A stretch of DNA of 63,366 nucleotides, counting the filler. It is 3 parts of 3 records of this genome, joined end to end, with 100 filler letters (N's around TTAATTAATTAA, not from the genome) between each part and the next. Parts side by side here need not be neighbours in the genome. Positions count along the whole stretch, not along the records: positions 25,174 to 56,609 come from SRR20825006_1956; 2 more parts are not named here. One strand, 5' to 3'. Below are positions 25,074-56,709 of the stretch, piece by piece. The first letter of the stretch is position 1; every line of letters begins with the position of its first letter. Under the pieces are notes generated by a model. That model was not told where the DNA came from. It was given only the letters and a program-made list of their open reading frames with translations, and searched no databases. A program made the position numbers and the translations under genes.

Positions 25074-25173
25074 NNNNNNNNNNNNNNNNNNNNNNNNNNN
25101 NNNNNNNNNNNNNNNNNTTAATTAATTAANNNNNNNNNNNNNNNNNNNNNNNNNNNNNNNNNNNNNNNNNNNN
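25074..25173. other. Artificial contig spacer
   Basis: N44-TTAATTAATTAA-N44 gives stops in all six frames; codon style and gene content change across it. Confidence 0.99.
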
Positions 25174-32828: not shown

Positions 32829-33470
32829 TCAGAGCCATCCCTTCAGCGGATCGAGCAACAACGCGGACCACGTCTCGAGCTTTTCCTCGCTTGCCTCCAG
32901 GACAAGCTCATCGAGTTTGCTCCAGCTCCCCTCGAGCTTCTCCGTCTCGCGTACCGAGACCTCGACGCTCTCCGCGATGTTCAGGTGGTATACGATGCCG
33001 AGGTGGACTTGCCCGACCTCGTTGGTGTCGTCGTTGATCAGACCTCGGTAGAAGATCTCGTGGGTCGCGGGTCGAGAGGAGAGCGCGAGCTCCTCCTCGA
33101 GTTCCCGCATCATCCCAGCGGTGATCTCATCGAAGGCGCTCGCTCGCCGAGGCGCGCCATCCTCGGCGCAGAGGTGCCCTCCCACACCGATCGATCTCTT
33201 GTCGTGAAGCCTCGCTTCACGCGAGGCGCGCTTTCGCCGCATCGTGAAGATATCCTCTCCGCGCGTGACGACGACGTAGGGGATAAGCTGCTTGCGTGAT
33301 GGGTCCTCTTCGAGCGGGCCTCGTTTGGCGTAGTCGAGGTTCGCGAGCAGGAAGGTAAGCTCGTCCTCACCATCGAGCATTCGCTTGGGTGAGAACCCGT
33401 GTGAGAGCAGCCCGTGGGATTCGAGCACCTCGCGTGACACAAAACCGATGATCTCGTCGTATTTGGACAT
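32829..33470 (-). CDS. NUDIX-family phosphoesterase (YmaB/COG4112-like)
   Basis: EEDPSRKQLIPY, RLHDKRSIGVGGH, RELEEEL, GLINDD.NEVGQVHLG. Confidence 0.85.
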   Translation of the reverse strand: MSKYDEIIGFVSREVLESHGLLSHGFSPKRMLDGEDELTFLLANLDYAKRGPLEEDPSRKQLIPYVVVTRGEDIFTMRRKRASREARLHDKRSIGVGGHLCAEDGAPRRASAFDEITAGMMRELEEELALSSRPATHEIFYRGLINDDTNEVGQVHLGIVYHLNIAESVEVSVRETEKLEGSWSKLDELVLEASEEKLETWSALLLDPLKGWL

Positions 33471-33589
33471 CGTCGCCTCTTCTTGCTTTAAGGGAGGGGG
33501 CGGATTTGCGAGGGGGCAACGTGACACGAATCGAGAAGGCCCGGTAGTCGAAATCAGAAGATCGGCTCGGGTCGAGCGCGTGAGGAAGG

Positions 33590-33790
33590 CAAGAAACTGA
33601 AACGGCAGGCTCCCTGGAGAGCCTGCCGTTTCAGTTTTGGTCGCGTCCCTTCGTGTGCGAAGTAAGTCGGAGGGATTTGGGATAGGATTTCCAGGAGGGA
33701 AACCAGGTAGGTAGTTGGGGAGGGAACTAAGAAGTGATTCAACCTACCTCACACACGAAAGAACACGACCGCTGTGTCCGTCTGTTGATG
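33590..33790 (-). ncRNA. Candidate small RNA with long closing stem and three UCCCUCC motifs
   Basis: Upstream TTGACC-N16-TAATAT; 33743-33769 pairs with 33640-33666 over 27 bp only on the minus strand (G-U pairs); terminator at 33594-33637. Confidence 0.7.
33594..33638. terminator. Intrinsic terminator hairpin, potentially bidirectional
   Basis: Perfect 19-bp stem AAACTGAAACGGCAGGCTC / GAGCCTGCCGTTTCAGTTT with 6-nt loop. Confidence 0.85.
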
Positions 33791-33792
33791 TA

Positions 33793-33820
33793 ATATTACG
33801 GTATTTGTGTAAAAGGTCAA
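33793..33820 (-). promoter_or_regulatory. Sigma70-like promoter driving the candidate sRNA
   Basis: Minus strand TTGACC-N16-TAATAT, with an AT-rich UP-like tract at about 33830-33860. Confidence 0.6.
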
Positions 33821-33960
33821 CTCCACTGTAACGATTTTTTCAATTTTATTGGAAAAAATGTTCTTCAGTAGAAGTGAGATGCCTGAAACACCTGCAAAGA
33901 TGCTTGAGAAATCAACGTTTTACCCAAAGAGTGCTGCTACAAGTGTAAAATTACACCAGA

Positions 33961-35367
33961 TCAGTCCCTCTTCTCAAGTAATATCCGAAGATTTTGTGCA
34001 TCCGTGTTGGATCGGACCTCGAAGAGGAGGTCTCGATAGCCGGGTTTGGTGACCCTGAGACGCAGCGTTTCCTCGCCAGCCAGCGAGGGATCAAGGGGGA
34101 AGGGGGTTTCGCCGAGCGGCTCATCACCCTCGGGGGTCACGCGCATCAGCTTGGCTTTACCGGGGTTGCTCTCGAGCATGATCGGGTTGTTGTCGATCTT
34201 GACGGTCGCGGTGGTCGAGGTGGCGGTGGTCGTGTTCGTGGAGGTCGCGTTGTTCGTATCTGGCGTCGAAGGTGTGAGCGCGTACATCGCCCAGGCGACG
34301 TTGGTCAGCAGCGCGAACAGGAGCGCGCCGCCGGTGAGCGCGCTCCGGCGGTCAGGTTTCGGGAGGGCATCTTCAGCGGCGAGCTCCTGTCGCCTCGGTG
34401 TCCTGGCCTCGGCGGGAGATGATGGCGGCGATGAGGATGTCGCGGTGTTTGCCTGGCTCTTCGGAGGCTCCTCGAGCAGATCGAGCCCCACGGCGCGCTT
34501 GAGGGCAGCGGCGAAAGCGCGCGCGCTCGTCCAGCGCGCTTCGGGAGAGGTGGCGAGCGCGCGATGCACGATCTCGCTGATCTCCTCGTCGATGCCAAGC
34601 TCGGTGAGCGCGCGCGGATCTTGCTGCAGCTGGATCATCCCCGCGGAAGGATCCTCTTCATCCTGGAAGAAGGGGTGGAATCCAACCAGGCAGGTGTACG
34701 CCAGCGCGCCGAGCGCGTAGACATCTCCCGCGCGCGAGAACGTCGGCTCGCTCACGTTCGCGTCGGCGGCGATGCGCGCGTCGGCGTCCGCGAAGACCTC
34801 TGGAGGGAGCGGCGAGAGGGATGGCGGTGAGAGCGTGGGCGTGGAGAGCGATCGCTGCTCGACGATATCGAGGCCGAGCTCGAAGTGTCCCAACCTGGCG
34901 AGGTTCGGGTCATCCTCGGGGAGGAAGACCCAACCTGGCGCGATGCTCCCGTGGTAGCGCTCCTGGCGATGGAGTGGCCCGAGCAGGTTCGCGATGCGCT
35001 CGATCAATTGCGCGCACTCTTCCGGCGAGAGCGTGCCGTCTCGATCGAGGATCTGTTGCAGGGAGTTCCCCTCGCAACGCTCCGTGATGACAAACGGGAC
35101 CCCCTCCTCGAGCTCGCCATAATCGATCGCAGAGAGCAGCGCCGCGTTGTCGAGCTGGCTCGTGCTCTGCGCCGAGCGCCGCAGGCGCTCGGTGATCGCG
35201 AGTTGGATGTGGCGAGGCGCGTCGAGCTCGAAGATATGGATCCAGACCTTCTTGTCGAACGGATCGCGGTGACCTTCGTAGATGTATTCGTGGCCGATGC
35301 GTCGAAATATGGCGCCCACCTCGTAACGGTGTTCGAGCGCGATCAGACCTCCCTCCAAATTCTCCAT
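33961..35367 (-). CDS. Membrane-anchored Hanks-type kinase-like protein (pseudokinase) with C-terminal PEGA-like domain
   Basis: Kinase scaffold (DYG...PFVITE, PPE, DVYALG..Y..L.G..PF, P..R) with catalytic motifs replaced; one TM; ESNPGKA...LGETP...KPGY. Confidence 0.85.
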   Translation of the reverse strand: MENLEGGLIALEHRYEVGAIFRRIGHEYIYEGHRDPFDKKVWIHIFELDAPRHIQLAITERLRRSAQSTSQLDNAALLSAIDYGELEEGVPFVITERCEGNSLQQILDRDGTLSPEECAQLIERIANLLGPLHRQERYHGSIAPGWVFLPEDDPNLARLGHFELGLDIVEQRSLSTPTLSPPSLSPLPPEVFADADARIAADANVSEPTFSRAGDVYALGALAYTCLVGFHPFFQDEEDPSAGMIQLQQDPRALTELGIDEEISEIVHRALATSPEARWTSARAFAAALKRAVGLDLLEEPPKSQANTATSSSPPSSPAEARTPRRQELAAEDALPKPDRRSALTGGALLFALLTNVAWAMYALTPSTPDTNNATSTNTTTATSTTATVKIDNNPIMLESNPGKAKLMRVTPEGDEPLGETPFPLDPSLAGEETLRLRVTKPGYRDLLFEVRSNTDAQNLRILLEKRD

Positions 35368-56609: not shown

Positions 56610-56709
56610 NNNNNNNNNNNNNNNNNNNNNNNNNNNNNNNNNNNNNNNNNNNNTTAATTAATTAANNNNNNNNNNNNNNNNNNNNNNNNNNNNNNNNNNN
56701 NNNNNNNNN
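56610..56709. other. Artificial contig spacer
   Basis: N44-TTAATTAATTAA-N44; GC drops sharply after it. Confidence 0.99.

Follow-up and report, generated by a model that had tools for sequence, protein, structure and literature searches.

C-rich small RNAs (sRNAs) such as RsaE/RoxS, 6C, LhrC, and IsrR carry motifs such as UCCC. RNAs of the cuckoo family consist of tandem hairpins that carry CCUCCUCCC in their loops, and their genes are often multicopy; in Y RNAs, a pyrimidine-rich loop is closed by a long stem of paired ends. Here, we describe a locus on the minus strand of a 63,366-nucleotide (nt) stretch of DNA (the window), at positions 33590 to 33860, on a contig from the order Bradymonadales, predatory bacteria that are common in marine and other saline habitats. 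The locus is a real, previously uncatalogued sRNA gene of this order. It encodes a structured minus-strand RNA unit with its own promoter and terminator, in which a long helix closes a loop carrying a phased array of pyrimidine motifs. The analysis establishes the gene, its strand, structure, conservation, and autonomy, as well as its presence in RNA libraries.

In the available parts of the papers on 6C, IsrR, RoxS, and LhrC, C-rich motifs bind mRNAs, and the title of the 6C paper presents that RNA as chaperone independent. For Rho, the available part of PMC6144790 gives the ideal Rho utilization (Rut) site as 78 nt long, with YC dimers separated by 9- to 13-nt linkers, of which those of 12 to 13 nt bridge adjacent subunits. 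In full-text searches, no regulatory RNA was found described for the Bradymonadales; supplementary files may hold sRNA lists. The Bradymonabacteria paper PMC7460792 reports transcriptomes, among them a dual RNA-seq of Bradymonas sediminis FA350 described as TruSeq stranded, and, in the part available, no sRNA analysis.

The RNA unit is organized as follows.

33793..33831, minus strand: promoter, with TTACAG (33831-33826), the -35 box TTGACC (33820-33815), TTACAC (33812-33807), and the -10 box TAATAT (33798-33793).

33740..33770, minus strand: 5' arm of the closing stem in the minimum free energy (MFE) fold, its inner half GUGUGAGGUAGGUUG nearly invariant across the family.

33670..33739, minus strand: G-poor, largely unpaired 70-nt loop, from sequence and fold, with five phased pyrimidine motifs.

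33724-33719, 33711-33706, 33699-33694, 33686-33681, and 33674-33669, minus strand: the loop motifs CCCUCC, CCUACC, CCCUCC, CCUAUC, and CCCUCC, respectively.

33729-33712 and 33704-33686, minus strand: two small local hairpins in the loop, from the fold.

33639..33669, minus strand: 3' arm of the closing stem, CCGACUUACUUCGCACACGAAGGGACGCGAC, from the fold and family covariation.

33588..33636, minus strand: intrinsic terminator, consisting of a 19-bp GC-rich hairpin (33636-33595) and the U-rich tail GUUUCUUG.

An earlier reading of the letters alone (the original prediction) had placed three elements on this strand, and each is present as claimed: a TTGACC-16-TAATAT promoter-like site at 33820-33793, a 27-bp helix between 33769-33743 and 33666-33640 with six G-U pairs, and a 19-bp terminator. 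In a promoter scan of positions 33000 to 34500, the TTGACC-16-TAATAT site is one of only two, with shuffled sequences giving 0.4. The MFE fold lengthens the helix to 31 bp (33770-33740 with 33669-33639) and includes the terminator hairpin at 33636-33595; in the window, this hairpin is GC rich and runs straight into a U tract where the unit ends, the hallmark of an intrinsic terminator. The 196-nt minus-strand stretch folds at -95 kcal/mol, compared to -50.4 ± 4.4 kcal/mol for 200 shuffles, none of which equals it (z = -10.1), while the plus strand reaches only z = -4.5. The original prediction also counted three UCCCUCC motifs in the loop. Their complement GGAGGGA is indeed found on the plus strand at 33669, 33694, and 33719, 25 nt apart, but the loop really has five motifs, spaced 13, 12, 13, and 12 nt, and UCCCUCC is every second one. 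Over the whole window, GGAGGGA occurs 8 times against 8.9 expected, so the clustering is unusual and not the word itself. Likewise, both proposed loop hairpins appear in the MFE structure but are not kept family-wide, inner loop hairpins differing between clades or being missing.

The window is made up of three contigs, separated by two N-linkers (25074-25173 and 56610-56709) that carry TTAATTAATTAA. Contig A (1-25073) is colinear with G001 at 97 to 98% identity. The sRNA locus is hosted by contig B (25174-56609), which belongs to the Bradymonadales and is not kin of G001. Its aspartokinase is 47% identical to that of G001, 93% to that of the Myxococcota metagenome-assembled genome L029, and 61 to 69% to those of Lujinxingia, Persicimonas, Microvenator, and other Bradymonadales records. 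The third contig (56710-63366) has a GC content of about 0.50, compared to 0.59 to 0.66 elsewhere in the window. The sequence affinities of contigs A and B indicate that the source assembly is a mixture of organisms. Accordingly, the 2.6-kb sRNA locus has no DNA match in G001, because contig B is unrelated to it. The true kin of contig B were gathered using the aspartokinase as bait.

A profile search (nhmmer) with a 241-nt stretch found homologs at about 20 loci of the Bradymonadales, next to the aspartokinase gene. Family members are kin and not independent, and the counts given here and below overstate significance. In an alignment of 21 sequences (A1), 94.4% of the cells in a 30-pair closing helix are paired, with compensatory changes in 15 of the 30 pairs. 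A larger alignment of 43 sequences (A3), aligned to a covariance model and hence leaning toward it, has 94.9% of the cells paired and compensatory changes in 20 of 30 pairs. None of 500 column shuffles is as high, and slid controls are 35 to 47% paired. The covariance model (R1, built on the minus strand as its forward strand) gives one strong match per genome in all five genomes behind the family loci. It has matches in 43 of 113 Bradymonadia genomes, the positive ones being bunched among those listed first after G042. A phylum-wide sampling of 151 Myxococcota genomes yielded 14 with matches, all 14 being Bradymonadia members already found, and no family member was found among the sampled genomes outside the Bradymonadia. 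The two analyses suggested with the original prediction, a homology search in Bradymonadia and Myxococcota and a covariation analysis of the stem, came out in its favor. So did its statement that no catalogued family was recognized: Rfam 15 has no match at gathering score across the whole window or in 20 member loci. Around the locus, at E values up to 10, there are only chance-level rows (none for 6S, Y RNA, CsrB, cuckoo, RsaE, or Pxr).

The copy number is usually one, the exceptions being L148 and L150, which have tandem duplicates, and L151, which is followed by a partial second copy. These head-to-tail arrangements occur in one clade (L148, 1501-1809; L150, identical to L050, 1501-1792; L151, downstream of 99-241). 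The first copy is without its own terminator, and a dimeric transcript is likely for the tandem copies.

The G-U pairs of the stem had been taken as a sign of selection on the minus-strand RNA, an argument that extends to the whole family. The helix cells of A3 hold 142 G-U against 26 A-C combinations, which identifies the minus strand as the functional one. Read on the complement, pairing falls from 94.9% to 85.8%, and three helix positions are almost fixed as G-U or U-G across the family. The flanking signals have the same orientation: at the family loci, a conserved promoter precedes the minus-strand unit, and a hairpin plus U tract follows it. At the same place, the model, built on the forward strand, scores 63 to 138 bits on that strand and 37 to 48 bits on the reverse strand.

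Most members share the promoter architecture TTACAG-N4-5-TTGAYW-NN-TTACAG-N7-8-(T)GGAATAA / TGAAATAA. The pattern occurs once per genome, at the sRNA locus only, in four of five genomes, with 0 control matches; being unique to the locus, it gives no clue to a wider regulon. Several members have an inverted CTGTAATTT element about 55 to 60 nt upstream of the -35 box. The TTACAG/TTACAC boxes flanking the -35 box, together with the upstream inverted CTGTAATTT or a palindrome (TGTAATTTTACA, below), are a likely regulator binding site. L153 has a different, ordinary sigma-70 promoter. At the 3' side, the window and L029 contigs, 81 to 86% identical overall, share a conserved block that runs from the kinase gene end to the tail GUUUCUUG, after which identity collapses, and the terminator hairpin shows compensatory changes between the two. 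A script found a hairpin plus U tract after the core in 35 of 45 members, some of the misses being hairpins that span the cut. In addition, many members have a UUUCUUG tail (33594-33588 in the window) behind terminator hairpins that are otherwise unrelated, a signal of higher specificity than a simple U tract.

Sequences of the locus are present in RNA libraries. In a search of sequencing runs, 19 rows contain the stretch, including six metatranscriptome runs from six studies, each with 0.77 of the sampled words; DNA runs contain all sampled words of 33590-33830. Contigs of four of these six runs span 33639-33927, 33645-33916, 33639-33941, and 33639-33917, at depths of 37, 4.5, 142, and 16, depth being a poor measure of expression. 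These contigs indicate presence in RNA libraries and do not give strand, level, or true ends, with DNA carry-over possible. Three of them end at 33639, exactly the last pair of the closing stem, and one at 33645, which is at most a weak sign that the 3' end is trimmed or that the hairpin dropped out. No contigs cover 33200-33403 or 33948-34200 in the four runs, and one low-depth contig lies at 33412-33562 (X14); missing cover was not used as evidence. At their other end, the contigs begin at 33941, 33927, 33917, and 33916 and extend 130 to 150 nt upstream of the predicted start at 33787, into a conserved block upstream of the promoter. The features of this upstream region are as follows.

33885..33960, minus strand: upstream conserved block, 100% identical between the window and L029.

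33955-33944, minus strand: palindrome TGTAATTTTACA in the upstream block, from sequence.

33977-33972 and 33953-33948, minus strand: TTGAGA and TAATTT, a weak distal promoter-like pair read by eye and not reported by the scan.

About 33860-33835, minus strand: A/T-rich tract upstream of the promoter, from sequence.

The block at 33885-33960 may serve as a regulator site or belong to a longer precursor as its 5' portion.

The loop was characterized across 45 family members. It is about 68 to 76 nt long and depleted of G (A.23, C.38, G.058, U.33; G in the stem,.29). UCCYWCC-type motifs number 204, compared to 86.8 ± 7 in shuffled loops, at 3 to 7 per RNA with a mode of 5. Among 159 adjacent spacings, 51 are of 12 nt, 29 of 13 nt, and 15 of 11 nt; spacings of 11 to 13 nt make up 59.7%, against 18.6 ± 3.1% for random placement (maximum, 29.6% in 2,000 trials). 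The variants include CCUUCC (42), CUUUCC (33), CCUACC (29), CCCUCC (20), CCUUUC (20), and CCCACC (19). UCCCUCC is a lineage-specific variant, found in the window and L029, of the looser family motif UCCYWCC. Motifs within one RNA resemble each other more than expected (likeness, 0.185 versus 0.116 ± 0.017 by chance), and L145 has five CCUACC.

In the window, the unit is flanked and overlapped by three reading frames.

33964-35367, minus strand: kinase-like gene (Pkinase E value, 9e-10) with the strongly conserved N terminus MENLQGGTLALEH.

32832-33470, minus strand: h213, a 213-amino-acid (aa) protein without a Pfam match, 44 to 69% conserved in the Bradymonadales.

33554..33742, minus strand: 62-aa open reading frame (ORF), not a gene; its reading frame is unconserved, and it has no Pfam match.

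The 5' untranslated region (UTR) of h213 also contains a C-rich word, CCCCCUCCC. The 62-aa ORF was considered as a gene and rejected: a conserved UUG is followed by 1 to 55 codons before a stop in 29 members and by no stop within the fetched DNA in 11, and 5 members lack the UUG. Conservation of this frame as protein, which the original prediction had named as evidence to the contrary, was therefore not seen among the 45 members.

An autonomous trans-acting sRNA that founds a new, Bradymonadia-restricted family is the best explanation of the locus. Because the unit lies between h213 and the kinase-like gene on their strand in the window, and RNA-library contigs reach within 20 nt of the kinase stop codon, it could instead be a cis element, either a leader or attenuator of h213 or a processed 3' UTR of the kinase-like gene. 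A survey of 42 nonwindow loci of about 3 kb makes this very improbable. A kinase-like gene is in reach at 38 of the 42. In 27 of these 38, it is upstream and shares the strand of the RNA; in the other 11, the RNA unit sits in reverse orientation between unchanged neighbors, which argues for its autonomy. As it flips together with its promoter and terminator, both conserved, it is neither an h213 leader nor a kinase 3' UTR. Moreover, h213 follows the RNA in only 16 of the 42 loci and was not found beside it in the other 26, and the two most distant members, L153 and L154, have other neighbors altogether. We give still less credence to a functional plus strand acting as a CsrB/RsmZ-like CsrA sponge, with GGAGGGA / GGWRGGA in hairpin loops. 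The complement does have five GGA-containing motifs, CsrA is encoded in five of five genomes, and the metatranscriptome contigs carry no strand. On that strand, however, the G-U pairs turn into A-C mismatches, pairing and fold are weaker (85.8% versus 94.9% paired; z = -4.5 versus -10.1), and in the family, the promoter and the terminator with its U tract point in the opposite direction. A CsrA sponge identity was rejected, as the minus strand is fixed by covariation and by promoter and terminator orientation, and the transcribed loop is 5.8% G with almost no GGA. Equally remote is the idea of a housekeeping RNA in disguise (6S or Y RNA), of a gene for a small protein, or of an inverted repeat at the DNA level. 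The long terminal helix, large internal loop, and apparent abundance would suit a housekeeping RNA, but nothing in Rfam matches even at E values up to 10. The unconserved 62-aa ORF speaks against a small protein, and the single-copy state and G-U covariation speak against a mobile or DNA-level repeat. Individual identities were also rejected. For 6S RNA (RF00013), which is built of a closing stem, a central bubble, and an apical stem, there is no match at the locus (E value up to 10), and the G-poor loop cannot form an apical stem. For Y RNA or YrlA, whose Ro partner is usually encoded close by, the TROVE (Ro) domain is found in 0 of 5 genomes (the control being positive in Deinococcus and Bacteroides), and there is no Rfam match. 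For cuckoo/CcsR/alpha-r14, there is again no Rfam match, 28 of 45 members are without CCUCC, and the inner hairpins are unconserved. Separately, full-length 6S-like candidates exist elsewhere in four of the five genomes (G047:C1:3247588-3247772 [L157], G042:C47, G049:C1, and G074:C1). They score 35 to 44 bits, under the Rfam cutoff of 46.4, and are probably divergent 6S RNAs underscored by the model.

For the partner and effect of the sRNA, which we infer, two readings were weighed. By analogy, we tentatively prefer, at somewhat below even odds, an Hfq-independent base-pairing sRNA aimed at G-rich sites. This reading is favored because characterized sRNAs of similar look (6C, IsrR, RoxS, and LhrC) act in this way, as do C-rich sRNAs of Gram-positive bacteria that need no chaperone. 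Hfq was found in 0 of 5 Bradymonadia genomes, and without Hfq in the host, G-C-rich seeds would be needed. The conserved sigma-70-type promoter would drive minus-strand transcription, and the intrinsic terminator would end the RNA. In the mature RNA, the two ends form the 30-bp helix, clamping a G-depleted loop of about 70 nt that stays single stranded and displays about five UCCYWCC motifs every 12 to 13 nt. These exposed C/U-rich motifs could pair directly with G-rich RNA stretches (GG-N2-GGA, ribosome-binding-site-like). Binding of several sites, at once or in turn, may then lower translation or stability, with the stem serving to keep the array unfolded and protected.

Several observations weigh against base pairing. 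The original prediction described the loop motifs as anti-Shine-Dalgarno (anti-SD) sequences and the RNA as a translational repressor. UCCCUCC is real in the window lineage, but the 28 loops without CCUCC do not share it. Although every member (45 of 45) has at least one site that pairs with a generic SD at -7 kcal/mol or better, the best such pairing has a median of -9.9 kcal/mol, no better than the -10.3 kcal/mol of shuffled loops. Anti-SD repression is possible, and the family data give no indication of it. The motif centre varies even at orthologous positions, and an A/U swap there implies a different pairing partner. Strict phasing of 12 to 13 nt is not needed for base pairing. Candidate targets did not stand out either. 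In G047, a GGTAGG-N4-20-GGTAGG array is found four times at the sRNA gene itself and twice elsewhere, compared to 11 to 14 control matches. The 22 crude genes of contig B score like shuffled loops as targets. The start region of the neighboring kinase gene was rejected as a coevolving target, since own pairs average no better than swapped ones (-12.7 versus -13.5), with the own pair better in 8 of 20 species; its G-rich stretch from +13 to +20 encodes a conserved Gln-Gly-Gly. Finally, the metatranscriptome contigs are not proof of transcription, strand, or ends.

Alternatively, the RNA may be a decoy or sponge that titrates a multimeric single-strand RNA-binding protein, as CsrB/RsmZ does for CsrA, with Rho as the most concrete candidate. 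We consider a decoy of some kind the main rival, though less likely than base pairing. The regular spacing (59.7% at 11 to 13 nt versus 18.6 ± 3.1% at random), the 3 to 7 motifs (mode, 5) in a loop of about 68 to 76 nt with C at.38 and G at.058, and the tolerance of Y and W at the motif centre, typical of protein sites, all fit such a role, as does a contig depth of up to 142, though depth is a poor expression measure. On the other hand, gain and loss of 12- to 13-nt units would keep the phase automatically, motifs within an RNA are more alike than by chance (0.185 versus 0.116), and no RNA-binding protein gene was found linked to the locus. We know of no bacterial protein that reads UCCYWCC, which also counts against a decoy. 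For Rho in particular, a protein of canonical size (418- to 435-aa frame) with a strong RNA-binding domain is encoded in five of five genomes. By the description in PMC6144790, Rut sites have more C than G over about 78 nt, are unstructured, and hold at least four YC units 9 to 13 nt apart; with its C-rich, G-poor composition, its length of about 68 to 76 nt, and its modal five motifs spaced mostly 11 to 13 nt apart, the loop resembles them, which is a resemblance only. By analogy, an abundant sRNA could act as a dead-end Rut decoy whose 70-nt loop, with five or six pyrimidine units at a 12- to 13-nt period, wraps the six primary sites of the hexamer. Its 3' continuation, locked in the 30-bp helix, could not thread into the Rho ring; the helix would bar the 3' strand from the central channel and hold Rho inactive. 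Regulation at the unique TTACAG-box promoter would thereby tune Rho-dependent termination genome-wide. We regard this specific version as improbable. The primary site of Rho needs only YC, and the conserved heptamer is more than required; moreover, according to the part of PMC6144790 available, chance alone makes [(YC)N9-13]6 strings frequent in genomes. Neither the base-pairing nor the decoy reading accounts for the invariance of the inner helix half and the wobbles fixed in it.

The locus is a well-supported regulatory RNA candidate, order-wide, with covariation-grade support and presence in marine metatranscriptomes, and as a fixed sRNA locus, it would be easy to delete in a cultured species. 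Its architecture, a phased pyrimidine array held open by a long, half-invariant helix, lies outside the usual seed-pairing picture. It could uncover either a new multivalent mode of recognizing G-rich RNA without Hfq or a new RNA that titrates a protein. If the decoy reading were true in general, this RNA might be the first example, in a lineage without Hfq, of a sponge for a multimeric protein that binds pyrimidines. If Rho were the protein, the RNA would be a global regulator of a kind that we did not find described; no sRNA sequestering Rho was found in a full-text search or in the available part of a 2026 review.

Compared to known systems, the Bradymonadia RNA represents a new family and, in its architecture, a new variant among the C-rich sRNAs; only if it proved to be a protein decoy would the RNA be categorically new. 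With RsaE/RoxS, 6C, LhrC, and IsrR, as far as the available parts of those papers describe them, it shares unpaired C-rich motifs in several copies, a promoter and terminator of its own, and the lack of a working Hfq route. Those sRNAs have two to three motifs in hairpin loops or linkers, the seed being the most conserved part, whereas the Bradymonadia RNA has 3 to 7 motifs at a period of 12 to 13 nt in one 70-nt loop, closed by a 30-bp clamp, with a drifting motif centre. Like cuckoo, CcsR, and alpha-r14, it has repeated pyrimidine, anti-SD-like words, UCCCUCC occurring three times in the window lineage. It differs in that the motifs lie mostly in an open loop, the gene is single copy save for three tandem duplications, and the phylum is another one. 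The Y RNAs are alike in their long stem of paired ends around a large pyrimidine-rich loop, but no Ro/TROVE was found in the five genomes, and there is no Rfam match to Y RNA or YrlA. Protein-sponge sRNAs (CsrB/RsmZ for CsrA and CrcZ for Hfq/Crc) also present many short degenerate motifs in accessible RNA and share the apparent abundance; here, the motif is UCCYWCC rather than GGA or A rich, and the spacing is regular. Rut sites, as given in the available part of PMC6144790, are likewise C rich, G poor, and unstructured, about 70 to 78 nt long, with YC-containing units 12 to 13 nt apart. In contrast to these parts of nascent transcripts, which are loose in sequence and open on the 3' side, the Bradymonadia RNA is free-standing, displays a defined heptamer, and has its 3' side locked in a helix that is followed by an intrinsic terminator.

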